From Nitrosopumilus maritimus SCM1 (lineage in GTDB: Archaea; Thermoproteota; Nitrososphaeria; Nitrososphaerales; Nitrosopumilaceae), in the NCBI RefSeq assembly GCF_000018465.1, contig NC_010085.1:1230001-1262000 (forward strand): a stretch of DNA of 32,000 nt, given 5' to 3'. Shown here one piece after another: positions 121 to 14,190 of this stretch (position 1 is its first letter; each line of letters starts with the position of its first letter). Under the pieces are notes generated by a model that was not told the DNA's origin, did no database searches, and saw only the letters and a program-made list of their open reading frames with translations. Position numbers and translations under genes: made by a program.

Positions 121-312
121 ATGTCTCAAAATGAATTTGAAAAAATAAAAAGATACGAAAGTTTGCAGGACGAATACAAGAATCTCCTTTCAGAATACGA
201 AGAGCTTAAAACAAGCAATCCTTACAATTTGCAGTTAACAAATAAAATTGTCGAACTTACCGCAAAACAGAAAGAAATTGAAACATCTTTGTCAGAACTC
301 AAAGAAATCTAG
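121..312 (+). CDS. small coiled-coil protein, 63 aa, unknown function
   Basis: ATG lies 1 nt after the upstream stop. Heptad-like charged sequence (EYKNLLSEYEELK...LTAKQKEIETSLSELKEI). No recognisable domain. Confidence 0.45.
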   Translation: MSQNEFEKIKRYESLQDEYKNLLSEYEELKTSNPYNLQLTNKIVELTAKQKEIETSLSELKEI

Positions 313-806
313 TTTTTATTTTCTAGATTAATCGTAGAGGGTTTTTGTTCTTTGCGAGAAATTGAAACAAGAACCTCGTCAAATTTTTTATTTGGAATCC
401 AGATTCTTTTTTTATCTTCATCAATCTCAATTATTGTTTTTGTCAAACCCAGCTTGAGAATAGTTCCTTTGCGATTTTCTATTTCAATCTTGGAACCGAC
501 ATGAATGTTTGTGCTTAATGCTATGCTTATGCCAGATGCGGCATTTTGTAATTTGTTGAGATACACAAATGCTGCAAAAATCAGTATTGCACTAAGGGAC
601 GTTACAGTCTCCAAGGCATACGTTAGAAGATCAAAATTTATTGAAAGATAGATTCCCTCTGCAATAACTATTAACAATATAATGACGACTAGTGCCTTGT
701 AGGATCCTTCTAGCTTTTTGAACTTGTAAAAATCAACAAGTTTTGCAGATGCAATGGCAACAACAGTAACTAGAATTGATATTATTGCATGGATTTCTAA
801 AGCCAT
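309..806 (-). CDS. mscS: small MscS-type mechanosensitive channel, last gene of the ectoine operon
   Basis: 165 aa. Three N-terminal hydrophobic helices, then an MscS beta-domain-like segment (IHVGSKIEIENRKGTILKLGLTKTIIEIDEDKKRIWIPNKKF). Position directly downstream of ectD matches the hyp-ectABCD-mscS arrangement known from Nitrosopumilus maritimus. Confidence 0.75.
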   Translation of the reverse strand: MALEIHAIISILVTVVAIASAKLVDFYKFKKLEGSYKALVVIILLIVIAEGIYLSINFDLLTYALETVTSLSAILIFAAFVYLNKLQNAASGISIALSTNIHVGSKIEIENRKGTILKLGLTKTIIEIDEDKKRIWIPNKKFDEVLVSISRKEQKPSTINLENKN

Positions 807-830
807 TTTCTTCTCACATGCGTTTCAAGT

Positions 831-1745
831 TTAGTTTAGAAAGTTTTCTATAGGATCCAATACAGAAAACTCTCTGGATCCAATGTAGTTGGGGCGAGGT
901 TCCAATCCACAAAATGGTGTGATTAGTTTATTGTGAATACTATTGAATACAATAAACGCGTTGCTTCGCGGATAAGGGGAAATATTTCCATTAGAGCCAT
1001 GCATGATATTGCAGTCAAAGAATATTGCAGAGCCTGCATCACCTTTGGCAGATACAATTCCTCCTTTTTCTACCATATCCTCAAGGATTTTCTTGTCAGG
1101 AGTACCTATCTCTTGTCTTTTTAGGGATTGTTTGTAGTGTTTGTCAGGAGTTGTACCAGAACACGAGACAAATTCTTTGTGAGATCCTGGAATGACCATC
1201 AGAGGACCGTTAAACTCATAGTTTTTTGTAAGACTGACAGAGCACGAGACAGCACGCATGTTTGGCATGCCATCCTCAGAGTGCCACGTCTCAAAGTCCG
1301 AATGCCAGTAGAACTCTTTTCCATCAAATCCAGGTTTCAGATTAACTCGGGATTGATGTACGTACACTTTGCTTCCTAAAAGCTGCTGAGCCACATCTAC
1401 AAGTCTACTGTCTTTGCAAAGTCTGCTAAAAATCTCACTTAGTTTATGTATTTCAAATATGGAACGTACATCTTTTTTTGTTTCCTCCAAGATGAATTGA
1501 GGCAGTTCTTTTTTAGAGTCATCTTTTGACAATGCCTTTAGTTCATCAAGTAATGCAGTCACCTCATCTATAGAAAACAGATTCTCAAATACAAGATATC
1601 CGTTTTTCTCAAAAAAATCCTCTTGTTTCCTAGTCAAAGAGGTTAAAGAACTTGGATATACCACAGGATCAGTCCTTGGGATAATTTTTGATTCAGAATT
1701 CATTCTTGTTGGATAAAAATCCATTTCAGTGTTATTTTGATACAT
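831..1745 (-). CDS. ectD: ectoine hydroxylase (non-haem Fe(II)/2-oxoglutarate dioxygenase)
   Basis: 304 aa. Contains the EctD signature stretch FYWHSDFETWHSEDGMP. Sits 1 nt downstream of ectC. Confidence 0.93.
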   Translation of the reverse strand: MYQNNTEMDFYPTRMNSESKIIPRTDPVVYPSSLTSLTRKQEDFFEKNGYLVFENLFSIDEVTALLDELKALSKDDSKKELPQFILEETKKDVRSIFEIHKLSEIFSRLCKDSRLVDVAQQLLGSKVYVHQSRVNLKPGFDGKEFYWHSDFETWHSEDGMPNMRAVSCSVSLTKNYEFNGPLMVIPGSHKEFVSCSGTTPDKHYKQSLKRQEIGTPDKKILEDMVEKGGIVSAKGDAGSAIFFDCNIMHGSNGNISPYPRSNAFIVFNSIHNKLITPFCGLEPRPNYIGSREFSVLDPIENFLN

Positions 1746-1746
1746 T

Positions 1747-2133
1747 TTACTTCTCCGTTAATAATGGATACACTCCTTGGGTATCATGAGTTTCAGGACC
1801 CACAAGTGGAGGATTAAAGACGCATATCATCTTCATTTCTGAAAATGCGCGTAGTACATGCTTGTCATGTTTGTCTAATGCATAAATTGTTCCTGGATGA
1901 ATTTCATGTCTAGTCCCGTCTTCTTCTTCAATTTCGCCGACTCCTTCCAGACAAAACACAGCTTCGAGGTGATGCTTGTACCAAATCTTTGTTTCTGTTT
2001 TGGGAAAAACAGTTGTCTGGTGAAACGAAAATCCCATCCCATCATCTTTTAGCAACAGTCTTGTGCTAGACCAATTATCAGAAGTGACTTTTCTTTCTGC
2101 ATCATGCAACGAGTCAATGTTACGGACAATCAT
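1747..2133 (-). CDS. ectC: L-ectoine synthase (cupin)
   Basis: 128 aa. MIVRNIDSL...WSSTRLLLKDDGMGFSFHQTTV...YKHHLEAVFCLEG...VFNPPLVGPETHD is the typical EctC pattern. 4-nt overlap with ectB. Confidence 0.95.
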   Translation of the reverse strand: MIVRNIDSLHDAERKVTSDNWSSTRLLLKDDGMGFSFHQTTVFPKTETKIWYKHHLEAVFCLEGVGEIEEEDGTRHEIHPGTIYALDKHDKHVLRAFSEMKMICVFNPPLVGPETHDTQGVYPLLTEK

Positions 2134-3425
2134 TTTTGCACAGTCACCATAGTCAATTTTTTATCAAAATCAGATTCTTGCATAACTTCTTTGATGCTTT
2201 TTTCCAAAATATCCAACCCCTTTGTCAGATTGCTTTCGGAAATGGTCAGAGGTGGAAGAAGTTTTACAACCTGATCATCAGGACCGCATGTCTCCAATAT
2301 CAGACCGTTTTCAAAGCATTTTTGTTTAATTTCGCTAGCCAAATCTTCTAGTATGCAATCAATACCATACACCATTCCCTTCCCCCTAACCTGAATATCT
2401 GAAGAAGGAAATTCATCGGATATTTCCTCTAACCTATGTTTTAGAATATTAGATTTTGTGGCAATTTGTTTTTCAAGATCATCATTTGCCCAGTATTGCT
2501 CAATGGCAGTTTTTGCAGTAACAAAAGCCATATTGTTTCCCCTAAACGTGCCATTGTGTTCACCAGGCTCCCATTTGTCTATGCCAGGCTTTAACAGCAG
2601 TAATGAAAATGGCAATCCAAAACCACTAAGTGATTTTGACAAGGTTATCATGTCTGGCTCTATCCCCATCCCTTCAAAGCTGAAAAAGCTTCCAGTTCTT
2701 CCACAGCCGACTTGGATGTCATCAACTATCACCAAAATTCCAAATTCTTTGCACAGTTCTTGTAATGATTGAAGCCATTTTGAGCTTGCAATATTAATTC
2801 CACCCTCACCTTGAACAGTTTCTAAGACTACAGCTGCAGGAAGATCAACTCCGCTGCTGTTGTCTTCTAGTAAGCGTCTAAGATAATCAATTGTGTTTAG
2901 TTTCTTTCCCATGTAACCATCATACGGCATAAACACGACATCATTTAGAGGAATTCCAGAACCACCTCTATGATGACTGTTTCCCGTAGCTGCAAGCGCT
3001 CCCAGCGTTACGCCGTGAAAGCCGTTTGTAAAAGAAATTATTTTTGTTCTGCCAGTAATTTTTCTTGCAATTTTAAATGCCGCCTCTACAGCATTAGTGC
3101 CAGTAGGGCCAGTAAATTGTAATTTGTAATCCAAATTTCTTGGCTCCAAAATGTATTTTGAAAATGAATTCAAGAAATCTTCTTTTGATCTTGTTGCAAG
3201 ATCCAAACTATGGGTGATGCCATCTTCGTTCAGATAATCAATGATTTCTTTTTTGAGTATGTGGTTGTTGTGTCCATAATTCAATGACCCAGCACCGCAA
3301 AGAAAGTCAAAATATTTTTTTCCGTCTTTGTCAATTAAGAGATGATCTTTTGCTTTTTCAAACATTACAGGATATGCCCTACAGTAGGATCTCACCTGAG
3401 ATTCAATTGTGTTGATTTGTTTCAT
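2130..3425 (-). CDS. ectB: diaminobutyrate-2-oxoglutarate aminotransferase (PLP class III)
   Basis: 431 aa. ESQVRSYCRAYPVMFEKAKD N-terminus, GAGSLNYGHNN, FTGPTGTNAVEAA, DDIQVGCGRTG and TLSKSLSG (PLP lysine) motifs. Flanked by ectA and ectC with 4-nt overlaps. Confidence 0.93.
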   Translation of the reverse strand: MKQINTIESQVRSYCRAYPVMFEKAKDHLLIDKDGKKYFDFLCGAGSLNYGHNNHILKKEIIDYLNEDGITHSLDLATRSKEDFLNSFSKYILEPRNLDYKLQFTGPTGTNAVEAAFKIARKITGRTKIISFTNGFHGVTLGALAATGNSHHRGGSGIPLNDVVFMPYDGYMGKKLNTIDYLRRLLEDNSSGVDLPAAVVLETVQGEGGINIASSKWLQSLQELCKEFGILVIVDDIQVGCGRTGSFFSFEGMGIEPDMITLSKSLSGFGLPFSLLLLKPGIDKWEPGEHNGTFRGNNMAFVTAKTAIEQYWANDDLEKQIATKSNILKHRLEEISDEFPSSDIQVRGKGMVYGIDCILEDLASEIKQKCFENGLILETCGPDDQVVKLLPPLTISESNLTKGLDILEKSIKEVMQESDFDKKLTMVTVQK

Positions 3426-3931
3426 GCGGTAACCTCCAAAAGACTTTTTTGAATAGGACCAATCCTTACTAGATCTTCTTGCTCGTGGCCATCACCCAAC
3501 ACATCTGATGAAAACAACGGAGTCTTTACAAAATCAGCATCCAGTTGTGCTGCAAAGTTTTGTAAAAATTTCAAAGATGCCTTGTTAGAAGGAGTGACGG
3601 TAGCCTCTACAAATCTAACATCATAATCCGTTTGAGAAAATGCTTTAAAGACAAGCTCTTTTGCCACGCCCTTGTTTCTATACGAGTCATCTACTGCTGC
3701 CTGCCAGACAAAGAGGGTATCATGGTTTTTTGGAGAGATAAAGCCTGAAAGAAATCCAACAATTTTTGAATCATATTCTGCAACTACGCATGTTTTTGAA
3801 AATTGGTGGCACAAGAGCACATAGAGGTATTTAGAATTCTCGTCAAGAGGCTTGTTGTTTTGCACCAACTCCCAAATCTTGTTAGCGTCATCAACTCGAG
3901 GCTCTCTAAATGTAATAGAAGTCATGATCAA
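3422..3931 (-). CDS. ectA: L-2,4-diaminobutyrate acetyltransferase (GNAT)
   Basis: 169 aa. GNAT core (VWQAAVDDSYRNKGVAKELV). Position upstream of ectB. Confidence 0.85.
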   Translation of the reverse strand: MIMTSITFREPRVDDANKIWELVQNNKPLDENSKYLYVLLCHQFSKTCVVAEYDSKIVGFLSGFISPKNHDTLFVWQAAVDDSYRNKGVAKELVFKAFSQTDYDVRFVEATVTPSNKASLKFLQNFAAQLDADFVKTPLFSSDVLGDGHEQEDLVRIGPIQKSLLEVTA

Positions 3932-4305
3932 AGTATGATTTTTTGAGCGTTTCCTTGAGAGTTGATCTCATTTTCTTGAAATGTCTTGTCTACGGCATTA
4001 CTTGCTTCAGGTGGAACACCAATTACAAACGGCAGGCGTTTGCCTTCAGAAGCACCACGTCCCATCATTAGTTTAGACAGGGTTAAGATTTTTTGTTTAG
4101 TTAAATCAGATGAGACTGTTTGAGAATCCGCCACGATTCCAATATGATACAGCTCTTTGTGAGGATTCCACCAGATCACATCAGGTGCCACACCTTCAAC
4201 ATCAGTAGGATTTTCAAAACCAGTACAGTTGGCTTGAATGACTTGTAATTCATCTTTTTCAAATATGTTGATTAAATTTTTTACCAGATATTCTGAAACA
4301 CTCAT
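3928..4305 (-). CDS. hypothetical protein, first gene of the ect operon ('hyp')
   Basis: The ORF track starts at a TTG (4329). The first ATG is at 4305 (MSVSEYLVKN...). 4-nt overlap with ectA. No domain recognised. Confidence 0.6.
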   Translation of the reverse strand: MSVSEYLVKNLINIFEKDELQVIQANCTGFENPTDVEGVAPDVIWWNPHKELYHIGIVADSQTVSSDLTKQKILTLSKLMMGRGASEGKRLPFVIGVPPEASNAVDKTFQENEINSQGNAQKIIL

Positions 4306-4430
4306 CAAATATAATTTGGAGTAAAACAAGTTAATCTTTTGTAAGCTAATGTATGGAAATTAAATTTCAAAACATAATTTACTGTTTTTTCCATAAACAG
4401 TGTTAATTAAACTAGAGGACTGTTGCAAAC

Positions 4431-6679: not shown

Positions 6680-7030
6680 ATGGATTACGAAAGGATTTGC
6701 AAGGATATTTTACATTTTGACTCTAAAATTCGATTTTGTGGGGTTACAAATGCAAAAAGTGAGTTAATTGCAAGCATTTCCAAAAATCCTGAAGAGAAAT
6801 TTCTTAGCAAAGACGAAATGATGATGTCAATTCATTATACGCTGGATAGGTCTGAAAAGCATACCAATCTATCATACAAGATAGGTAATGAAAAATCAGC
6901 AGTGATTGAATATGATAAAGTTACAATGATTACTATTCCTCTTGAAAAAAAAGAATTATTGTTAATCAGTACTGAGCCAGAAGCAGACTATTACAAGATT
7001 ATTGCTAAAGCAAGAGAATCACTTTCTTAA
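6680..7030 (+). CDS. small cytoplasmic protein, Roadblock/LC7-like pattern (tentative)
   Basis: 116 aa. Alternating pattern IRFCGVTNAKSELIASIS ... SAVIEYDKVTMITIPLEKKELLLISTEPEADYYKIIAKARE resembles Roadblock/MglB-type folds. Divergent from the sensor gene. Confidence 0.45.
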   Translation: MDYERICKDILHFDSKIRFCGVTNAKSELIASISKNPEEKFLSKDEMMMSIHYTLDRSEKHTNLSYKIGNEKSAVIEYDKVTMITIPLEKKELLLISTEPEADYYKIIAKARESLS

Positions 7031-7399
7031 CGATTTTTTTGTTTTATGTGCAACTTTTGTTCCCATTTTTACTGTCTTTAATTTTTTAATTATACTTATT
7101 CCTATTTTCAAAAACTTGAATGCAGAAAAAATTGGAATCAAGGTCAGCATTACAATGTCAATCCAGTATTTTTTTACAAATTTTTTTGGATCCCTTACCT
7201 TGTTATACTTGAAGTACAGATCAAACACCAACAAAATTATCAAAGGCCAAATCAGAAAATCAAAAAACTGTTTTGATTCATAAGGAAGAGATAGTATAGG
7301 CTCTGAAAGTCCAATTGTACTGTACTCAAATGAAACAATACCTGCAAAAAACATCAGCCCTATTGCAATTATTGCAAAATCAAGAATTTTGTAGATCAT
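7019..7399 (-). CDS. 4-TM membrane protein resembling an isolated voltage-sensor domain (S1-S4) with no pore
   Basis: 126 aa. Four hydrophobic segments. S2-like FFDFLIWPLIILLVFDLYF. S3-like KKYWIDIVMLTLIPIF (the wNxiD-type motif of Ion_trans proteins). Lys-rich S4-like FKFLKIGISIIKKLKTVKMGTKV. ATGA overlap with the upstream small ORF. Confidence 0.5.
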   Translation of the reverse strand: MIYKILDFAIIAIGLMFFAGIVSFEYSTIGLSEPILSLPYESKQFFDFLIWPLIILLVFDLYFKYNKVRDPKKFVKKYWIDIVMLTLIPIFSAFKFLKIGISIIKKLKTVKMGTKVAHKTKKSLRK

Positions 7400-7590
7400 A
7401 GCATTGCAGAAAGTATAACAATCAATGCTGCTGAAATCAGATAGAATCCATAAAATGACTTTTTGTAACGCGGTCTGGCCAAAGCGAATTTTCTAGCAGA
7501 GTGTTTTGATTTTTTGAAAGAAAAGATACGAGAACATTGTGAGAAAAAAGACTCACAGCCGGTCTGGTCTAGGGAAGAATGTTCTCGCAT
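7396..7590 (-). CDS. small tail-anchored protein, paralogue 1 (about 64 aa)
   Basis: Paralogous to 10625-10822: shared MREH/MQEH start, PRYKKSFYGFY vs PRHKKSFYIFY, and a C-terminal hydrophobic tail. The internal ATG 7590 sits ~26 nt downstream of a conserved TATATGAT box. The track ORF extends to 7605. Confidence 0.6.
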   Translation of the reverse strand: MREHSSLDQTGCESFFSQCSRIFSFKKSKHSARKFALARPRYKKSFYGFYLISAALIVILSAML

Positions 7591-7624
7591 GGTTTTGATA
7601 TGCATAATGTGATCATATACCTTG

Positions 7625-7642
7625 GTCAGCTGTTTAGCTTAC
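7625..7642 (-). promoter_or_regulatory. inverted repeat GTCAGCT-N4-AGCTTAC just upstream of a TATA-like box (copy 1)
   Basis: Imperfect 7-4-7 inverted repeat. Its centre is 43.5 nt upstream of ATG 7590. It lies inside a 44-nt block conserved with 10842-10884. Confidence 0.6.
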
Positions 7643-7696
7643 TTGTAGTGAGGACATCTTACCAGACTCTATGAGACTCTACAACTTATCACAAAC

Positions 7697-7846
7697 ATGA
7701 AAACACAACAAATCTCAAACTGGGATAAGATGGTTCACGCCCCATTCAAGAAGGTCGTAAAGTTTGATCTCATATGCATGGGAATGGGAGCAGTGATGGG
7801 AATGGGCGTAGGCGCCTACCTTGTTGCTAGCGGAATGTTCGTCTAG
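7697..7846 (+). CDS. unannotated 49-aa Met/Gly-rich membrane peptide
   Basis: ATG 7697 to TAG 7844-7846: MKTQQISNWDKMVHAPFKKVVKFDLICMGMGAVMGMGVGAYLVASGMFV. Locally GC-enriched codons in an AT-rich intergenic context. Below the 60-aa cutoff of the ORF track. Confidence 0.45.
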   Translation: MKTQQISNWDKMVHAPFKKVVKFDLICMGMGAVMGMGVGAYLVASGMFV

Positions 7847-7859
7847 CAAAACTATTTTT

Positions 7860-8660
7860 TTATTCTTTTAGCTTGCTTTCCTGGAATACGTCAGAGCCAT
7901 ACCAGCAGTATCTGAAATAGTCAAGACACCATTCGTGAAACATTGGATCCTTTGAATAGAACATTTCAGTAATGTCAGACTCGCCCTCGTTGTCAGGAAA
8001 CATGACACATGCCTCCTTTTCGTTTAGTACAAGCGATGTCTGTATGTTAGATATCATTTTTCTCTCAACTAGCCCTGCCTCAAGCAATTTGTCAAAGCCC
8101 AGTTTTTTCAATAACGCCTTTCTTCCTTTTGGAACTATTGTGGACTCTGAAAAGACATAGTTGAATTTTACGCCTTTCTTAACTTGCTTTACCAACGGCT
8201 CAATAATATCCAGAGGCACTTCTGCAATTACCTCGTAGACATACTCATCAGAATTCTTGTAGATATTTTTCCATTGCTCTATGACTTTTGATACGCCTTT
8301 GACATGAGTGCTCATTGCAAGCTGGCCGCAACGCATGTTGAATTTGTGTGGAAGATCACCAAAGTCATGGCCCTCAAAATATTTTCTGTTTTGTAAAAGA
8401 AATACCAGCGATGGCACTTGCGTGCAGATGCTCTTGCCAAACGTTGTCAGAGTGTACTTTCCGTCAAGAGTTTTTTTTACCAGTCCATTTTTTTCAAGAC
8501 GTGCAAAATTTCGGTGCACTTCCTGTCTTGTTGAGTCGACTTCCTTGGCACATTCAGAAGGTGTTAAATTTTTACTTAGCAATTTGAATAAAATGTTCAG
8601 TCTCTGAGGACTTGCTAATTCCAGAACATAGTCTGCTGCCTCATCAATAAGATCTTCCAT
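7860..8660 (-). CDS. winged-HTH transcriptional regulator with a ~170-aa C-terminal domain (ArsR-like HTH plus DUF1724-like architecture)
   Basis: 266 aa. N-terminal PQRLNILFKLLSKNLTPSECAKEVDSTRQEVHRNFARLEKNGLVKKTLDGKYTLTTFG is a wHTH. The domain family of the C-terminal part is assigned from memory only. Confidence 0.7.
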   Translation of the reverse strand: MEDLIDEAADYVLELASPQRLNILFKLLSKNLTPSECAKEVDSTRQEVHRNFARLEKNGLVKKTLDGKYTLTTFGKSICTQVPSLVFLLQNRKYFEGHDFGDLPHKFNMRCGQLAMSTHVKGVSKVIEQWKNIYKNSDEYVYEVIAEVPLDIIEPLVKQVKKGVKFNYVFSESTIVPKGRKALLKKLGFDKLLEAGLVERKMISNIQTSLVLNEKEACVMFPDNEGESDITEMFYSKDPMFHEWCLDYFRYCWYGSDVFQESKLKE

Positions 8661-8682
8661 GTATGATCATCTGATATACACT

Positions 8683-8711
8683 AAAAAAACTAGTTGAAAA
8701 TGAGCTTCAAC
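8683..8711 (-). terminator. hairpin plus T7 tract after the hemerythrin gene
   Basis: Minus strand reads GTTGAAGCTCATTTTCAAC (6-bp stem, 7-nt loop), then TAG, then TTTTTTT, starting 17 nt after the stop at 8728. Confidence 0.5.
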
Positions 8712-8727
8712 TAAGACAGGAAACATT

Positions 8728-9270
8728 TTACTTTTGATACCACGGACAGGATTCCAGATAATCAATTTCCTTAATCATGTCCTCAACTTTTTTTACAACT
8801 GCAAAAATTGAGCGGTACTGCTCGTACATGTCTATCTCTTCTTGTTCTGAAAGTACTTTTTCTTCTGCATCATCAAAGAACTTGTTCTCTTTGTTTAGAT
8901 GATCATTTAGAAATACTGCATATGTTTTGAGATACCTTGACACTGACTCTCGTGCATCTTCTCCTGCCTTCCATCGTTTCAAATGATGGTGAATTTTCTT
9001 TGCAACGTTTCTTCCAAACTCGTGCTCTACTAGAAATTTGTGAATCTCATCTTTTAGAGAATCATGACTTGCCACGCACGGAAAATAAGAGTCCTCTTCT
9101 CGGGAATGGTGAATTGTATCAACAAATTCAGATATTACAATGGTGATTTTTGTAAGATCAGAAAACGGAATGTCCTCCCCGTTTTTTAATTCCTCAGCAC
9201 ATTTGAAGACAATCTTTTCTAGTCTTCTTACCTGAATGTGATCTGCACGTAATTCATCTGTGGCGCTCAT
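8728..9270 (-). CDS. hemerythrin-like (HHE cation-binding) protein
   Basis: 180 aa. LRADHIQVRRLEKI, TIHHSREEDSYFP, LVEHEFGR and FLNDHLNKENKFF follow the His/Glu spacing of hemerythrin-like domains. Lies 10 nt downstream of the oxidase gene. Confidence 0.75.
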   Translation of the reverse strand: MSATDELRADHIQVRRLEKIVFKCAEELKNGEDIPFSDLTKITIVISEFVDTIHHSREEDSYFPCVASHDSLKDEIHKFLVEHEFGRNVAKKIHHHLKRWKAGEDARESVSRYLKTYAVFLNDHLNKENKFFDDAEEKVLSEQEEIDMYEQYRSIFAVVKKVEDMIKEIDYLESCPWYQK

Positions 9271-9280
9271 GATGATAAAG

Positions 9281-10615
9281 TCAGTTCACGCTAATTGTAC
9301 CTTTCATCCAAGGATGCAAAGTACAGATGTAATCAAACTCTCCTGGATTGTCAAAGGAGTAGCTCCATGTATTTCCTGCCTGTATGAATCCAGAGTCAAA
9401 TGAATTTTCATTGTCAGTTACAGTATGCACTACAGAGTCATCATTTGTCCACGTTACGGTAGTACCAGAGTCAACTTGTATTGCAATAGGATCATATGAC
9501 TCTGTGATTTCAGGATTCCAGGAATCCTTTACAATTGATACCTTGTCAGCAGATACTTTTTCAGATGATATGGCAGCAGACTCTCCCAAGTTTTCATATG
9601 AGATTAGCTGTGGTTGCTCCAAAGTTCTGATTAGGTCTTCTTGCCACTCTACCATGGAATAGCTTCCCTTGTTGTTGCTTGGTCTTTGAACGTCTGATAA
9701 TGATGATGCATCCTCAAGCACTTCAATCATTGCCATGGAGCCACGTTCCTCTTGTATTCCATGTACATGGAAGAGGTACATTCCAGGCTGTGTCCATGTA
9801 GCTTCAATTATTGCAGTGTCACCGTTTCCTATCAGATGTGTCTGTGCATAGTATGGCTCATTCCACAGTATTCCTGACGGGTACACCTTCATGATTGTGC
9901 TGTGAACATGGAACGGTGACTGTAAAACTCCCCCAATACCTACAACATAAAATCTGGTCAATTCTCCTGAAACAACTCGTATTGGATTATCCATGTACTG
10001 ACCGGCATATCCATTAATTGGATAAAATTCAGTAAAATGCTCCAATGCGTTATTTGGATCAAATTCGCTTAAAGTAAAAAAGTATTCACGTGCAGGATCC
10101 ATTGGACGTATTGCAGGATCAATTATCATGGTGCCAAACATGCCCATTCTAACATGCTCGGACGTAGGAAATGCATGACAGTGATACATGAACAGTCCTG
10201 CTTCTTCTGCTACAAAGTGATACGTGTATTCCTCTCCAGGCATTATCATTGGAAAGACTCCGTCATTTGCAGAATCATGGGTTCCATGAAAATGAATGGT
10301 ATGTGCATATGGAGTATCATTTACAAATTTTACGGTAACGTCATCTCCCTCAGAGAATCTAAGCGTTGGTGCAGGAACCGTTCCATTGTACGTCCAAACC
10401 TTGGCCCTGACTCCAGGAGACACCTCAATTTCGGCATCTTGTGCAATCAAAGTATAAGACAGTGTTTGCGGATTTGGGTTTTTGAATTTTGGAAAAGTGT
10501 CAGACGAGTCTGCAACAGTTGTTTGAATCTCAGGGGACTGTAAGAGTATTGCAAATGCTATGCTAAATCCAATTATGATTCCTGCAACAATATAGATTGT
10601 ATTTGGCTTTACCAC
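9281..10615 (-). CDS. two-domain multicopper oxidase (NirK-related) with a fused C-terminal plastocyanin-like domain
   Basis: 444 aa, GTG start, N-terminal TM/signal anchor. Copper motifs HTIHFHG, MYHCHAFPTSEHVRMGMFG, FHVHS, LFHVHG. The C-terminal ~100 aa carry a type-1 Cu ligand set (VVHTV ... YICTLHPWMKG). Confidence 0.85.
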   Translation of the reverse strand: MVKPNTIYIVAGIIIGFSIAFAILLQSPEIQTTVADSSDTFPKFKNPNPQTLSYTLIAQDAEIEVSPGVRAKVWTYNGTVPAPTLRFSEGDDVTVKFVNDTPYAHTIHFHGTHDSANDGVFPMIMPGEEYTYHFVAEEAGLFMYHCHAFPTSEHVRMGMFGTMIIDPAIRPMDPAREYFFTLSEFDPNNALEHFTEFYPINGYAGQYMDNPIRVVSGELTRFYVVGIGGVLQSPFHVHSTIMKVYPSGILWNEPYYAQTHLIGNGDTAIIEATWTQPGMYLFHVHGIQEERGSMAMIEVLEDASSLSDVQRPSNNKGSYSMVEWQEDLIRTLEQPQLISYENLGESAAISSEKVSADKVSIVKDSWNPEITESYDPIAIQVDSGTTVTWTNDDSVVHTVTDNENSFDSGFIQAGNTWSYSFDNPGEFDYICTLHPWMKGTISVN

Positions 10616-10624
10616 GATGACTCA

Positions 10625-10822
10625 CTACAGTCCCAATGTGAGAAGTACTACAGATATTGCAGAAAAAGCATAGAAAATGTAAAATGATTTTTTGTGACGT
10701 GGTAAGGATGATTTTGAATTGTTTGAAAATAGATTTGATAGTTTTTGCGGAAAATATGCAAGAACATTATGAATATCAGATTCATAATTTTCTTCTTGTC
10801 TAGGGAAGCAGTGCTCTTGCAT
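10625..10822 (-). CDS. small tail-anchored protein, paralogue 2 (about 65 aa)
   Basis: See 7396-7590. Ends 9 nt before the oxidase GTG. ATG 10822 is ~26 nt downstream of a conserved TATATGAT box. The track ORF extends to 10837. Confidence 0.6.
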   Translation of the reverse strand: MQEHCFPRQEENYESDIHNVLAYFPQKLSNLFSNNSKSSLPRHKKSFYIFYAFSAISVVLLTLGL

Positions 10823-10856
10823 GAGAAGTATACGCAACTGTAAATCATATACATTG

Positions 10857-10874
10857 GTAAGCTGCCAAGCTTAC
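10857..10874 (-). promoter_or_regulatory. perfect inverted repeat GTAAGCT-N4-AGCTTAC upstream of a TATA-like box (copy 2)
   Basis: Perfect 7-4-7 palindrome. Its centre is 43.5 nt upstream of ATG 10822, the same spacing as copy 1. Confidence 0.65.
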
Positions 10875-10960
10875 ATGTAGTGAGATGTTTTTACAACAGG
10901 GGTTTTGACAAATGGCAAATCCAATCTCATAGTTTGCCAATGTTGTGGCAAGAAATTATT

Positions 10961-11136
10961 TTAGTTATGTTTTTGCAGATATTTGCGCAATATCACATTA
11001 ATCACTGCAGAATAGCTGTAGGATTTTTGTCTCTTTGCATCCATTGCGCTTGAATTGTTCGTATTTTTTTATCCAAAGAGCTGTCAATTACAAATGTAAC
11101 GCGTCTTGCCACAGTCAATCCCAATAAAAAATACAT
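10961..11136 (-). pseudogene. ribbon-helix-helix (CopG/Arc-like) gene interrupted by a frameshift in an A5 run
   Basis: Frame a (ATG 11136): MYFLLGLTVARRVTFVIDSSLDKKIRTIQAQWMQRDKNPTAILQ*, stop at 11002-11004. A different frame continues KSYSYSAVINVILRKYLQKHN* to 10961, which is the expected RHH helix B. The two join at the homopolymer at 11024-11028 (TTTTT on plus). One extra A would restore a ~58-aa RHH protein. Confidence 0.5.
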
Positions 11137-11239
11137 AATAAATTCATACCTGTGTCAAGTAATATCTTGAGGTAATTCTCAAAGGACAAAAATAAGACAA
11201 ACTAGTATATGTGACCATTTTTCAAATTAGGTCAATTTT

Positions 11240-11368
11240 ATGACATCTCATGCCAAAGCCAAGAAAGTTGTTTGTCCCGATTGTGGATATTCCATGAATG
11301 AAGAAAATTACAAAAACAGGCACAAAAACTCAAAGAAATGCAAGAGAAATCAAAAATCGCAGTCTTGA
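11240..11368 (+). CDS. 42-aa basic Cys-containing peptide (possible zinc finger)
   Basis: MTSHAKAKKVVCPDCGYSMNEENYKNRHKNSKKCKRNQKSQS. CxxC plus distal H/C. Short, with no other support. Confidence 0.3.
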   Translation: MTSHAKAKKVVCPDCGYSMNEENYKNRHKNSKKCKRNQKSQS

Positions 11369-11423
11369 ATATACGGAATTAAAAAAATACAAAGTGGAAT
11401 TCCAAGAATTGGATGTTTTCAAT

Positions 11424-11519
11424 TCATGAAATCTCTTTTCCACATTTGTTTGAGCATATGTTTTCAAACAAGCTTGCAAACTCTCTTCCACAATGAATAC
11501 ACGTTCTAAAGATTTTCAT
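11424..11519 (-). CDS. 31-aa zinc-ribbon-like peptide
   Basis: MKIFRTCIHCGREFASLFENICSNKCGKEIS. CxxC ... CxxxC pairs. Confidence 0.3.
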   Translation of the reverse strand: MKIFRTCIHCGREFASLFENICSNKCGKEIS

Positions 11520-11693
11520 GATTAGTTATGGAATAATTCTACAAAATCACAGCCAGAGCATATTTTTGCTTGAATCTTTCTCCAAGGCTGTTCTGCTTGT
11601 AGAGAGATGTTTGTCTCGCTTCTTTGAACAAGATTTGAACATTTTGGACATGTTTCCATGCTTTTGTATTCTTGTGCTCAGATATTATTAGCT

Positions 11694-11711
11694 GTAAGCT
11701 TGACAGCTTAC
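11694..11711 (+). promoter_or_regulatory. third copy of GTAAGCT-N4-AGCTTAC, opposite orientation, with no intact downstream gene
   Basis: Perfect 7-4-7 palindrome. The flank CCAATGTTTTTGATCAC (11711-11727) matches the minus-strand flank CCAAGGTATATGATCAC of copy 1. Only an 11-codon ORF follows. Confidence 0.5.
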
Positions 11712-11820
11712 CAATGTTTTTGATCACAATTGCAAAACGGAATTGACTTCTAGTTGTGCAATGACAAATTTCATTTGAAAAATTAGATCTGATTGAACAG
11801 ACTATACCTTGTTTTCATTT

Positions 11821-12507
11821 TTAATTCACGGTTAGTTTTGTCACTTCTTGTTCCAATGTTGTTGGAAACTTCATGACACCGCGATGCCAAAAGTTGTACT
11901 CTGTCATCTCATCTCTTTCAAACGTGTGCTCCTTGACGTCCAGGAATAGTTCTACCTCATGCTCTGCCAGACTCTGAAGTGCAGATAGATAATTTTCTTG
12001 AGGCATATTGCCTGATGAAAACTCTTCTTTTAGCAATTCAAACTCTTTGTGTATTTGGTCATATCTGTCACGAAGTTCTTGTGTTGTGTATTTGTTGCCA
12101 AGATCAACGGGTTCCAACTCTACAATATCATTGACAAATATCACCTGCTTTGTCCTGTCCTGTTCTGGATAGTACCAGTCAGGGGCTTCTGGATCATAGA
12201 ATCCTGAAACTTGGACATGTTGGAGATTTTCTGGCAGAGTACCTACATTATACAGTGCAATTTGGATGGCACCATGCAATTCTGAATAGATTTTGTTAGG
12301 AATCAGCACATATTCTGGTTTTCTGTCACTTTGCGGTGCATTGAGTGGTGTCTCGTATGGTTTTATCTTACCATCAATTTGCACATGCAAAAGATCTTCA
12401 GGAACGTCCATTGTTGTAACGACAAACAGATTGGGTGCAAGATAGAAAATTCCAACAATTATTGCAACAACTACAATACCTATGCCAATTGGAACTGTCT
12501 TATTCAT
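11821..12507 (-). CDS. membrane-anchored hypothetical protein, 228 aa
   Basis: N-terminal TM (VPIGIGIVVVAIIVGIFYLA). Acidic extracytoplasmic body. No domain recognised. Confidence 0.6.
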   Translation of the reverse strand: MNKTVPIGIGIVVVAIIVGIFYLAPNLFVVTTMDVPEDLLHVQIDGKIKPYETPLNAPQSDRKPEYVLIPNKIYSELHGAIQIALYNVGTLPENLQHVQVSGFYDPEAPDWYYPEQDRTKQVIFVNDIVELEPVDLGNKYTTQELRDRYDQIHKEFELLKEEFSSGNMPQENYLSALQSLAEHEVELFLDVKEHTFERDEMTEYNFWHRGVMKFPTTLEQEVTKLTVN

Positions 12508-13858: not shown

Positions 13859-13962
13859 AATCAAAATACTGATGCAAAGAGGATTTTTGGGTAAGCTTTC
13901 TTGTTGACTGGTACTTAACATGTATTCTAGTTAACATACATCATGGGTGAGAAATACTGGGC

Positions 13963-14190
13963 ATAGTCTGTAATGGAATCTGCAACAAGTACAAAGCCAA
14001 AAAGCCTTCCAATGAGGGCAGATATACAGCAGGGCAAAAGAGATGCAATTCATGTGAAATTTTTATTCACTGGGAGGGATTGTTTTGCCCATGCTGCAAA
14101 TACAGATTAAGATCTTGTCCTCGTAATTCTAAAAACAAGGAGAAATTTCTCAAAGTTTCATCCCATAGAAAAAACATGCTACAAAAATAA
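13963..14190 (+). pseudogene. Cys-rich zinc-ribbon paralogue of 19080-19250 whose start codon reads ATA
   Basis: The frame is open from 13951 to TAA 14188-14190: (I)VCNGICNKYKAKKPSNEGRYTAGQKRCNSCEIFIHWEGLFCPCCKYRLRSCPRNSK... ATA GTC TGT here aligns with ATG GCA TGT of the paralogue. There is no ATG/GTG/TTG in frame upstream. Confidence 0.4.

Follow-up and report, generated by a model that had tools for sequence, protein, structure and literature searches.

A palindrome at a fixed distance from the start codon marks a putative, apparently undescribed small regulon in Nitrosopumilaceae

Two related small genes of the marine ammonia-oxidising archaeon Nitrosopumilus maritimus SCM1 lie on either side of a winged helix-turn-helix (wHTH) regulator and share their upstream sequence, which raises the question of what the duplicated module encodes and what controls it. 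Both lie in the window analysed here, a stretch of 32,000 nt (Table 1). An initial annotation proposed paralogous ORFs at 7396-7605 and 10625-10837 (minus strand), each with a TATA box upstream of an internal ATG and a palindrome centred exactly 43.5 nt from it; copy B was placed before multicopper oxidase and hemerythrin genes, the other copy was described as ATGA-coupled to a membrane protein, and the regulator was placed between them. All of this anatomy is borne out. Translated from their internal ATGs, the two ORFs are similar (BLASTP E=2e-7, 56% identity over the last 25 aa), and the stop of ORF A overlaps the next start as ATGA at 7396-7399.

Table 1. Features of the locus, in window coordinates
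Feature	Position	Strand	Remarks
126-aa multi-pass membrane protein (by order, Nmar_1351)	7019..7399	-	translationally coupled to ORF A
ORF A, 64 aa	7396..7590	-	leader fused in frame to conserved TM mini-protein; PRYKKSFYGFY... core about 7399-7473
Leader A, 65 nt	7526..7590	-	from presumed transcription start (start codon)
TATA box TATATGAT, promoter A	7612..7619	-	-29..-22 relative to ATG 7590
Operator O1-A, GTCAGCTGTTTAGCTTAC	7625..7642		centre 7633.5, 43.5 nt 5' of ATG 7590 (minus)
Degenerate operator O2-A, GTAGTGAGGACATCTTAC	7645..7662		2 bp from O1; read from sequence
p49, 49-aa glycine-zipper-like membrane peptide (MKTQQISNWD...)	7697..7846	+	
266-aa wHTH regulator (by order, Nmar_1352)	7860..8660	-	
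Hemerythrin-domain protein Nmar_1353	8728..9270	-	downstream of multicopper oxidase; PMC12448741
Multicopper oxidase Nmar_1354	9281..10615	-	
ORF B, 65 aa	10625..10822	-	leader fused in frame to TM mini-protein; NCBI: hypothetical protein
Leader B, 67 nt	10756..10822	-	P2 = AUUAUGAAU/AUUCAUAAU
TATA box TATATGAT, promoter B	10844..10851	-	-29..-22 relative to ATG 10822
Operator O1-B, GTAAGCTGCCAAGCTTAC	10857..10874		centre 10865.5, 43.5 nt 5' of ATG 10822
Relic O2-B, GTAGTGAGATGTTTTTAC	10877..10894		copied with module; no p49 gene behind
45-aa zinc-ribbon protein (METCPKC...CSGC)	11522..11659	-	gene behind operator C; orthologue in locus L003
Operator O1-C, GTAAGCTTGACAGCTTAC	11694..11711		perfect site; centre 43.5 nt 5' of ATG 11659
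Variant operator GTAAGCTTTCTTGTTGAC	13891..13908		fourth window site; centre 43.5 nt 5' of ATG 13943
Double-zinc-ribbon gene	13943..14190	+	frame broken near start

The palindrome, here called the operator, recurs far more often than chance allows and keeps its distance from start codons. GTMAGCT-N4-WGYTKAC occurs four times in the window, always centred 43.5 nt 5' of an ATG and always with a TATA box at -29..-22. Allowing two mismatches gives 7 strand-matches in the window against 0.18 expected from shuffles, and O1-A has a PWM score of 38.9 where the shuffle maximum is 5.5. Across 83 related loci (1.2 Mb), 41 sites have at most one mismatch, against none in shuffles, and the distance to an ATG is exactly 43.5 nt for 34 of the 47 strict sites (chance would give fewer than 2). 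In 62 operator-to-ATG promoters, the operator ends 34 nt (49 cases) or 35 nt (13 cases) before the ATG, so that its centre lies at a distance of 43.5 or 44.5 nt. Their consensus is GATTAC-NN-GGTAAGCT-N4-AGCTGACCAAGGTATATG, with CCAAGGTATATG as the TATA consensus. Half-site spacing is 11 bp, roughly one turn of the helix, and the operator occupies -52..-35, directly 5' of BRE/TATA. The constant spacing could partly stem from shared descent of duplicated promoter modules rather than from stereospecific contact. More distant Nitrosopumilaceae share the TGTTGAC variant of the fourth site. Literature searches yielded no paper on the operator.

In Nitrosopumilus and Nitrosarchaeum, the promoters of orthologues and paralogues retain site and spacing. 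An operator precedes orthologues of the multicopper oxidase gene in 5 further loci (two of these are the same contig, leaving four distinct), those of the 126-aa membrane-protein gene, and a 60-aa zinc-ribbon gene (ZnR60) in most Nitrosopumilus and Nitrosarchaeum loci examined. The conserved core locus comprises this zinc-ribbon gene, the operator, p49, usually a nitroreductase, and the wHTH regulator, in the canonical order ZnR60 <- O1 O2 -> p49 - nitroreductase - regulator. The double-zinc-ribbon gene behind the fourth window site is a paralogue of the 73-aa partner of ZnR60. The nitroreductase Nmar_1357 has no operator in the window and is co-induced according to the literature. These conserved sites support the view that the palindrome marks a small, apparently undescribed regulon that includes Nmar_1354. 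Such a regulon had been proposed from two promoters, a number that proved too small: the window has four, and a conserved core of zinc-ribbon gene, p49 and nitroreductase at other loci adds to these. The sites at 11694-11711 and 13891-13908 are additions to the initial annotation, as are the O2 palindromes and the nested stems within the "N-terminal" parts of the ORFs.

Nucleotide conservation had also been noted upstream of both ORFs; the DNA alignment displays it, and the weaker palindrome O2 accounts for it. O2-A is centred 43.5 nt 5' of ATG 7697 of p49 on the plus strand. p49 is the operator's most conserved neighbour (56 loci), with an operator 43-78 nt 5' of its ATG in 44 of 56 copies, and the layout O1-NN-O2-34 nt-ATG is also visible upstream of p49 in related loci. 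Its promoter pairs a weak TATA box (TCTATG) with the weak O2. The weaker palindrome, 20 bp from O1 (centre to centre), may act on the divergently oriented p49 gene in the same geometry.

Guilt by association makes the 266-aa regulator a plausible binder of the operator. All window sites lie <6 kb from its gene, which has its own T-rich TATA box 30 nt 5' of the ATG, and two operator sites are found at the locus of a 75%-identical paralogue. A dimer of Nmar_1352 or of this paralogue would most likely occupy the palindrome, with the C-terminal domain sensing the signal. The predicted structure of the regulator (pLDDT 48) is too poor to interpret, and Nitrosotenuis orthologues at loci without an operator have the same recognition helix, QEVHRNF. 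With Msr (Methanosarcina) and FilR1 (Methanosaeta), wHTH+DUF1724 proteins, it shares an N-terminal ArsR-type winged helix, an uncharacterised ~180-aa C-terminal domain and a total size of about 24-30 kDa; it matches HVO_A0261_N above cut-off and FilR1_middle/DUF1724 weakly (21.0 bits against a cut-off of 27). It differs from them in its thaumarchaeal host and in its apparent targets, which are nitrogen-oxide/redox genes and tiny proteins rather than methyltransferases. Literature searches on the Msr/FilR1 family found the operator, the -43.5 geometry and the tandem O1/O2 layout for no member. ArsR/SmtB proteins resemble the regulator in the HTH_5 match (29.7 bits, cut-off 22) and in a palindromic operator with half-sites about one helical turn apart, but the N. 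maritimus protein has a long extra C-terminal domain and scores far below the cut-off of the NCBIfam metalloregulator model (27.5 against 55). As de-repressors, ArsR/SmtB proteins also mostly cover the promoter.

Activation by recruiting or stabilising TFB/TBP is moderately favoured over repression, because the operator lies next to the TATA box instead of over it, at a fixed spacing. Ptr2, TFB-RF1 and, at gluconeogenic promoters, TrmBL1 are archaeal activators that bind just 5' of BRE/TATA. The N. maritimus promoters resemble theirs in a palindrome right before the BRE, a fixed phase and a weak core promoter on one side (p49), although the regulator belongs to an unrelated protein family. Alternatively, and with less probability, the palindrome is a repressor operator, at which the same wHTH protein or another factor would sit by the BRE and block TFB/TBP until a signal relieves repression. 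The 3' half-site ends at -35, touching the expected BRE position; the good TATA boxes of the O1 promoters (GGTATATGAT, AAGTATAATG) are not obviously in need of an activator; a tandem O1/O2 suits cooperative repression of a divergent pair; and many ArsR-type regulators are repressors. Most characterised archaeal repressors, however, act over the TATA box or start site, neither of which is covered here. The p49 promoter, weak in both TATA and O2, looks activator-dependent, and HTH+DUF1724 (Msr) regulators, to which Nmar_1352 bears a weak resemblance, have been described as activating the transcription of specific operons (bioRxiv 10.1101/2021.03.04.434021), both of which count against repression.

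Transcripts of operator promoters most probably start at the A of the start codon, since the promoter geometry read from the sequence fits leaderless mRNAs. At some of these promoters in the genus Nitrosopumilus, this start codon opens a conserved element, here called the leader. In copy A, stem P1 is AUGCGAGAACA/UGUUCUCGUAU, stem P2 is UGUGAG/CUCACA and the internal loop holds CCCUAGAC (fold -21.9 kcal/mol, z -3.9); copy B folds with -19.4 kcal/mol (z -3.3), and its P1 shows a compensatory change (G-C to A-U) as well as a G.U pair. In the genome loci a covariance model recovers 16 copies, each of which follows an operator directly; it also matches 8 of 8 metagenome contigs, a set preselected by a pattern search that required operator, spacing and CCTAGAC. 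A test for a third stem around CCCUAGAC gave no support, the standard P2 is missing from two copies (loci L033 and L086), and a comparison with Rfam 15 gave no family match.

The leader probably acts as RNA, to judge from how its stems vary. P1 cells are 99% paired, and P1 has compensatory changes from G-C to A-U (window copy B) and from C-G to G-C (L086); P2 has both-sided changes at 4 pairs. It is improbable that the nested inverted repeats at +3..+65 (GCGAGAACA...TGTTCTCGC; TGTGA-N5-8-TCACA) are instead DNA operators for a second protein, such as the roadblock repressor type. In favour of that view, the sequence of P1 and of the P2 core (UGUGA/UCACA) is largely invariant and covariation is modest, TGTGA...TCACA resembles a classical protein-binding palindrome, and P2 has nearly equal counts of G.U and A.C pairs (9:8). 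Yet nested, length-variable repeats with loops of 5-11 nt are atypical of dimer-binding sites, compensatory changes keep the pairing in window copy B, L086, L039 and L085, and G.U pairs exceed A.C pairs in P1 (5:1 with two degenerate copies set aside, a weak excess). The upstream ORF and stop/start overlaps described below also show selection at the mRNA level.

The initial annotation had taken the unit to be a tail-anchored protein of ~65 aa, a reading that calls for revision. The 5' part of the ORFs is better explained as a conserved structured, translated leader than as an N-terminal domain. That the module encodes a genuine ~65-aa protein and lacks any RNA element is, if anything, slightly more doubtful than the DNA-repeat view. 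In both SCM1 copies the frame does run uninterrupted from the 5' ATG into the TM tail, NCBI annotates a 65-aa product, in-frame versions also occur in loci L016 and L086, and P0122, P0124 and P0125 are among the full-length database proteins. In 17 of 21 copies, however, translation from the 5' ATG would end after 23-33 codons, which makes a separate upstream ORF. Leaders of 62, 63, 65 and 66 nt differ by non-multiples of three, and the invariant CCCTAGAC, read as PR or as LD, and the 3' arm fall in different frames among copies, so that peptides differ while nucleotides are conserved. The same leader precedes unrelated zinc-ribbon genes. As for the small ORFs as conserved coding sequence in relatives, this applies to the C-terminal ~38 aa (PRHKKxFYGFY and a hydrophobic helix) and not to the first ~65 nt, although the DNA alignment of the two copies is conserved there and further upstream. 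The C-terminal differences are of coding type (196/70/257 by codon position), and most homologues are 37-55 aa long, matching positions ~36-67 only. Finally, a mere recent segmental duplication within SCM1 devoid of regulatory meaning, to which the shared block (about 7396-7662 and 10625-10894, with a relic O2 that has no gene behind it) might point, is extremely improbable, given that operator, spacing and leader are kept in many species and before non-homologous genes and that shuffled controls contain no strict sites.

The leader would be a short upstream ORF from the 5'-terminal AUG and a two-stem RNA at once. P1 would pair the start-codon region with a downstream arm that the P2 hairpin adjoins. 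The upstream ORF stop overlaps the next start (NTGA: ATGA, GTGA or TTGA) in 12 of 21 copies, and in 4 of 21 the ORF is fused in frame to the next gene, which suggests that the downstream gene relies on a start at the 5' AUG to be translated. By gating this step, P1 would provide a second layer of control, at the post-transcriptional level. Leader peptides coupled by termination-reinitiation are similar in their short ORF and in a stop that overlaps the next start (12/21). Unlike theirs, this upstream ORF opens directly at the 5' terminus of an mRNA that is presumably leaderless, with its start codon inside a conserved stem; alternative terminator/antiterminator pairing is not evident on inspection, and no conserved run of regulatory codons is apparent because the peptide is not conserved. 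In the manner of riboswitches, RNA thermometers and other cis-regulatory 5' RNA structures, the leader is a conserved 5' fold of ~65 nt whose closing stem takes in the initiation codon and which keeps an unpaired motif (CCCUAGAC) conserved, but here the structure lies inside a translated ORF, covaries modestly and lacks an Rfam 15 match.

Taken together, an operator regulon with an adjacent wHTH binder and a structured, translated leader is the best joint explanation and a reasonably probable one. Its SCM1 targets would include the pair of TM mini-protein and 126-aa membrane protein (with no Pfam match above cut-off and no NCBIfam match), p49, small zinc-ribbon proteins, and the operon of TM mini-protein, Nmar_1354 and hemerythrin. 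Nmar_1354 is identical to PDB 9CCK, a copper enzyme that oxidises NH2OH to HNO, and Nmar_1353 and Nmar_1354 are both up in biofilm (PMC12448741). Published proteomics and transcriptomics tie the cluster to anoxia, NO accumulation and biofilm, which suggests that the regulon may respond to a nitrosative or redox signal.

The palindrome GTMAGCT-N4-WGYTKAC (the operator, O1) occurs in the window far above chance, with 7 strand-matches to the pattern at up to 2 mismatches against 0.18 expected. From base composition, the perfect form GTAAGCT-N4-AGCTTAC should arise by chance about 0.005 times in the 1.65-Mb SCM1 chromosome, and the degenerate form somewhat more often. The initial annotation placed two palindromes 43.5 nt before the internal ATGs of the paralogous small ORFs A and B, with a TATA box upstream of each ATG; both are found at that distance, and the box, TATATGAT, lies at -29 to -22. 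A third, perfect operator and a fourth of variant form, GTAAGCTTTCTTGTTGAC, sit 43.5 nt before the start codons of a 45-aa CxxC...CxxC protein and a double-zinc-ribbon gene, respectively. A position weight matrix built solely from other genomes recovers exactly these four sites in the window, with scores of 16.6-38.9 in gene orientation versus a shuffle maximum of 5.5, and finds no others, including upstream of the nitroreductase or flavodoxin genes. Relative to the ATG, the promoter layout read from the sequence has the operator at -52 to -35 and the BRE/TATA element at -34 to -22, and the TATA position is consistent with leaderless transcripts. Longer ORFs starting at 7605 and 10837 were ruled out, because the internal ATGs are the starts that agree with the TATA position, the conserved spacing and the 65-aa annotation at NCBI.

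Positions of the features discussed, in window coordinates or in those of related regulator loci from other contigs or genomes (L numbers). Locus tags other than Nmar_1354 are inferred from gene order and are consistent with published data.
Sequence	Feature	Position	Strand	Locus tag	Remark
Window	Ectoine/hydroxyectoine cluster	309-4329	minus
Window	ORF A	7396-7590	minus		64 aa
Window	ATGA common to ORF A and 126-aa gene	7396-7399
Window	Operator of ORF A	7625-7642			ATG at 7590
Window	p49	7697-7846			49 aa
Window	Regulator	7860-8660	minus	Nmar_1352	266 aa
Window	T-rich box of regulator	8661-8700
Window	Hemerythrin			Nmar_1353
Window	Multicopper oxidase	9281-10615		Nmar_1354
Window	ORF B	10625-10822	minus		65 aa
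Window	Operator of ORF B	10857-10874			ATG at 10822
Window	Cys-rich ORF	11240-11368	plus		MTSHAKAKKVVCPDCGY...
Window	Cys-rich ORF	11440-11520	minus		MKIFRTCIHCGREF...
Window	Third operator (C)	11694-11711			ATG at 11659
Window	Operator C with plus-side flank	11694-11760	plus
Window	Fourth operator	13891-13908			ATG at 13943
Window	Double-zinc-ribbon gene	13943-14190	plus
Window	228-aa protein			Nmar_1355
Window	Flavodoxin			Nmar_1356
Window	Nitroreductase			Nmar_1357
L001	T-rich box of paralogue	3160-3208
L001	71-aa protein	4010-4225	minus
L003	T-run after P1 3' arm	7612-7616
L003	51-aa protein	11076-11231
L016	71-aa protein	~10800-11016
L021	Leader copies	8396-8470; 8617-8691

Two of the window sites have unusual surroundings. 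For operator C the plus orientation gives the higher score, owing to a CCAATGTTTTTGAT flank that resembles a decayed TATA box; because no gene follows on the plus strand, this side is probably the relic of a former divergent promoter. Tiny Cys-rich ORFs surround the 45-aa zinc-ribbon gene behind this operator, and zinc-finger mini-proteins are unusually frequent in the region. Behind the fourth operator, the reading frame of the double-zinc-ribbon gene is broken: frame 0 gives MGEKYWA and then a stop, and the conserved CxxC...CPCC protein lies in a different frame. Candidate explanations are a pseudogene, a -1 frameshift at TGGG and an error in the sequence. Orthologues in three related loci (L003, L004 and L090) begin MSRNSGPHP... 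and are intact, except for an internal stop in L090.

The operator is retained in relatives. In 80 regulator loci fetched from named genomes, 41 sites with at most one mismatch occur over 1.2 Mb, against none in shuffles, and for 34 of the 47 strict sites an ATG lies exactly 43.5 nt away in one direction. Allowing a variant half-site yields 62 promoters with the consensus GATTAC-NN-GGTAAGCT-N4-AGCTGACCAAGGTATATG, in which the gap from operator end to ATG is 34 nt (49 promoters) or 35 nt (13), so that 43.5 or 44.5 nt separate the operator centre from the ATG. Sites are present in Nitrosopumilus and Nitrosarchaeum, and more distant Nitrosopumilaceae carry the form GTCAGCT-N4-TGTTGAC; Nitrosotenuis-type loci have no operator near the regulator. 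An assembly contig distinct from the reference chromosome (L001), which encodes a protein identical to the SCM1 paralogue of the regulator, has two sites, both placed 43.5 nt ahead of an ATG on the minus strand. In the orthologous locus L003 the site is kept before the oxidase, an orthologous promoter whose lack of the palindrome would have spoken against a regulon, and also before a gene pair ending in a 126/130-aa membrane protein. There a 51-aa protein (MAKKVTIVLDDDLVKKLR...) occupies the place of the leader and transmembrane peptide between operator and 130-aa protein, so the operator has been kept and the first gene swapped; this 51-aa protein looks ribbon-helix-helix-like by eye and has no Pfam match. 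The motif is thus over-represented, fixed in promoter position and kept in orthologous promoters, which supports the proposal of a small regulon, and no description of the operator or regulon was found in the literature.

The most widely conserved target is a protein of ~60 aa with four Cys pairs (MRIDSCRKCG...), encoded beside the regulator (ZnR60). Across the operator from it is p49, a glycine-rich membrane peptide gene present in 56 loci; in 44 of these an operator precedes the p49 ATG by 43-78 nt, most often by ~63 nt. A further palindrome of degenerate form (O2, GTAATCT-N4-GTTTTAC-like) is separated from O1 by 2 bp, and the p49 ATG comes 34 nt after it. The reported nucleotide conservation upstream of both small ORFs is present (...GTAGTGAG...), and the extra stretch can now be read more precisely as O2; at ORF B, O2 has no gene behind it and is a relic. 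The canonical gene order is ZnR60 <- O1 O2 -> p49 - nitroreductase - regulator. The SCM1 set is expanded and rearranged, with an oxidase-hemerythrin operon, the 126-aa membrane protein, the 45-aa zinc ribbon, the double-zinc-ribbon gene and, on L001, a 71-aa protein. The last, an operator target adjoining the paralogous regulator and also found in L016, is His-rich and predicted to be secreted: its N-terminus resembles a signal peptide, and its tail (CEGGSCEEKGDHRHEHKKKK) is rich in Cys and His. It may bind metal.

ORF B and the regulator each match a Nitrosopumilus maritimus protein at 100% identity. The oxidase is Nmar_1354, since its residues 36-444 are identical to the structure of that protein (PDB 9CCK), whose oxidation of hydroxylamine to nitroxyl has been demonstrated (PMC11761707). 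The proteins most strongly induced in anoxic O2/NO production include Nmar_1354 and Nmar_1357, a role in 'nitric oxide processing' has been proposed for Nmar_1352-1357, and Nmar_1353 and Nmar_1354 rise in biofilms (PMC12448741). These published data are compatible with a common control. The small, 126-aa and 228-aa proteins have no match above cut-off in Pfam or NCBIfam. Just upstream of the studied region lies an ectoine/hydroxyectoine cluster (ectD-ectC-ectB-ectA and an upstream hypothetical gene), assigned by size, order and sequence.

The candidate binder is the wHTH regulator, to which the co-localisation of its gene and of its paralogue with the sites points. It matches the ArsR-type wHTH model HTH_5 (PF01022, 29.7 bits versus a cut-off of 22, residues 17-63) and HVO_A0261_N (PF25213, 45.7 versus 35, residues 15-85), the latter given for every orthologue shown. 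The match to FilR1_middle/DUF1724 (PF08350) is weak (21.0 bits versus a cut-off of 27, residues 141-253), and this family is among the precomputed matches of some orthologues. The ArsR/SmtB metalloregulator model NF033788 (NCBIfam) scores 27.5 bits, below its cut-off of 55. Close homologues of the regulator number more than 1,300, among them the 75%-identical SCM1 paralogue. A PDB profile search gave generic wHTH matches only, with E > 0.01, and the AlphaFold model (18 close homologues) is too poor to compare folds, at pLDDT 48. The recognition helix is unchanged even in orthologues whose loci lack the operator, so co-evolution of helix and operator is not readable from comparison. A conserved T-rich box (CAACTAGTTTTTTTAG or CATCATTTTTTTA) begins 30 nt before the regulator ATG, both in SCM1 and in L001 and the related loci L057-L083, and is common to the regulator, its paralogue and the Nitrosotenuis orthologues, suggesting that the regulator genes have their own leaderless promoter, independent of the palindrome.

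The regulator would bind O1 as a dimer and O2 more weakly, and probably activates. Activation is favoured because the site abuts the core promoter instead of covering it, its distance is constant, and on the p49 side a weak operator goes with a weak TATA box. Relatives of HTH+DUF1724 architecture are described as activators (bioRxiv 10.1101/2021.03.04.434021), although the regulator's own FilR1_middle match is weak, and repression is a serious rival. On the literature context, the signal for the probable activator may be nitrosative or redox.

The two small ORFs had been taken as a duplicated ~65-aa tail-anchored protein. They are paralogous and share a C-terminal tail (56% identity over 25 aa, E=2e-7), but conservation as protein is limited to the C-terminal ~38 aa, and at the DNA level the two copies are also conserved across the initial ~65 nt and before the ATG. 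A profile of ORFs A and B searched against 1.84 billion proteins gave 16 matches, mostly of 37-55 aa, which cover only the last ~30 positions. The tail is K-rich, with PRHKKxFYGFY and a hydrophobic helix, and homologues finish in a hydrophobic stretch (...VLSLVL). Differences by codon position 1/2/3 number 196/70/257 among seven DNA copies, a coding signature for the tail, so that coding conservation of the ORFs in relatives, on which the original reading depended, holds for the tail and fails for the 5' part. Only the C-terminal ~38 aa thus qualify as a predicted tail-anchored membrane protein, and in one genome (L010) this peptide of 38 aa begins right at +43.5. A better account of the '65-aa protein' is a series of three parts: an operator-promoter, a translated, probably structured leader, and a membrane peptide of 38 aa.

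The leader, the first ~65 nt from the 5' ATG, is conserved as nucleotides: ATGCGAGAACA...CCCTAGAC...TGTGA-loop-TCACA..TGTTCTCGC, with a length to the end of the 3' arm of 62, 63, 65 or 66 nt. Its CCCTAGAC is translated Pro-Arg in some copies and Leu-Asp in others, and the 3' arm reads SQCSR, HNVLA or TSSR by copy. The same leader also lies upstream of an unrelated zinc-ribbon operon in several species. The frame from the 5' ATG runs for 23-33 codons before its stop in 17 of 21 copies and is in frame with the transmembrane tail in the remaining four (both SCM1 copies, L016 and L086). In 12 of the 21 the stop overlaps the next start (NTGA: ATGA, GTGA or TTGA), as had been noted for ORF A and the gene of the 126-aa membrane protein; other leader ORFs are followed by a Shine-Dalgarno-like AGGAG/AGGTGA. 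These overlaps and fusions are hard to explain unless the leader ORF is translated and coupled to the next gene. A metagenome-assembled locus (L021) has near-identical leader copies 220 bp apart around a run of N, probably an assembly artefact and not a true tandem duplication. A MITE-like mobile element, an idea drawn from the terminal inverted repeats, was rejected, as every copy lies exactly at +1 of an operator promoter, in register with the start codon.

Each leader copy can form a stem of the start-codon region with the 3' arm (P1) and a hairpin adjoining that arm (P2), with CCCUAGAC in the loop between. The window copies fold at -21.9 and -19.4 kcal/mol (z -3.9 and -3.3); two further copies fold less well (z -1.2 and -2.2). 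A covariance model detects 16 copies among the genome loci, every one from Nitrosopumilus and immediately preceded by an operator. It also matches 8 of 8 metagenome contigs, which were pattern-selected beforehand for operator, spacing and CCTAGAC; they provide no independent test of the operator link and are too few for a strong covariation test. The pattern scan gave 0 matches in viral contigs. P1 cells are 99% paired; window copy B shows a double change from G-C to A-U, L086 a change from C-G to G-C, and G.U pairs occur several times. In P2, both sides have changed at four pairs, and the hairpin reaches at least 5 bp in 17 of 19 copies. The covariation score was reached by 3 of 500 shuffles, and the G.U versus A.C strand asymmetry weakly favours the sense strand. 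RNA-structure support appears real but modest, because P1 and the core of P2 are largely invariant. A third stem (P3), a hairpin around CCCUAGAC, did no better than shuffled flanks, and Rfam 15 has no relevant family in 7000-12000, even at E up to 10. In L003, L004 and L090 the P1 3' arm is followed by a run of 6-7 T (GTTCTCGCTTTTTTCTA), resembling a hairpin-plus-U terminator; attenuation is not taken as the general mechanism because the T-run is absent from zinc-ribbon-type leaders.

P1 would restrict initiation at the 5' AUG and hence also expression of the coupled downstream genes. A tentative extension, on balance doubtful, is that the leader represents a novel type of cis-regulatory element in archaea: a uORF on a leaderless mRNA whose 5' AUG lies in a conserved stem, with a signal, a protein or co-transcriptional timing acting as the gate for initiation, and stop/start coupling controlling downstream genes including Nmar_1354. 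Together with the operator and regulator, it would form a two-tier switch of nitrogen-oxide metabolism in marine ammonia oxidisers.

Ammonia-oxidising archaea dominate marine nitrification and are a major source of N2O. Essentially nothing on their gene regulation was found in the literature, and both the regulon and the leader appear undescribed. The locus offers a concrete, testable circuit, with an operator, a candidate regulator with a paralogue and a fixed promoter geometry, placed before Nmar_1354 (hydroxylamine to nitroxyl, thus N2O) and genes induced in anoxic NO/O2 production and in biofilms. It also holds a conserved unit of tiny genes largely missed by standard annotation: the 38-aa transmembrane peptide, the 49-aa peptide and zinc ribbons of 45-73 aa. 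The leader is a candidate for something rare among archaea, a 5' leader of conserved structure that is linked to leaderless translation, and the link to an HNO/N2O-forming oxidase gives regulon and leader their interest for experiment.
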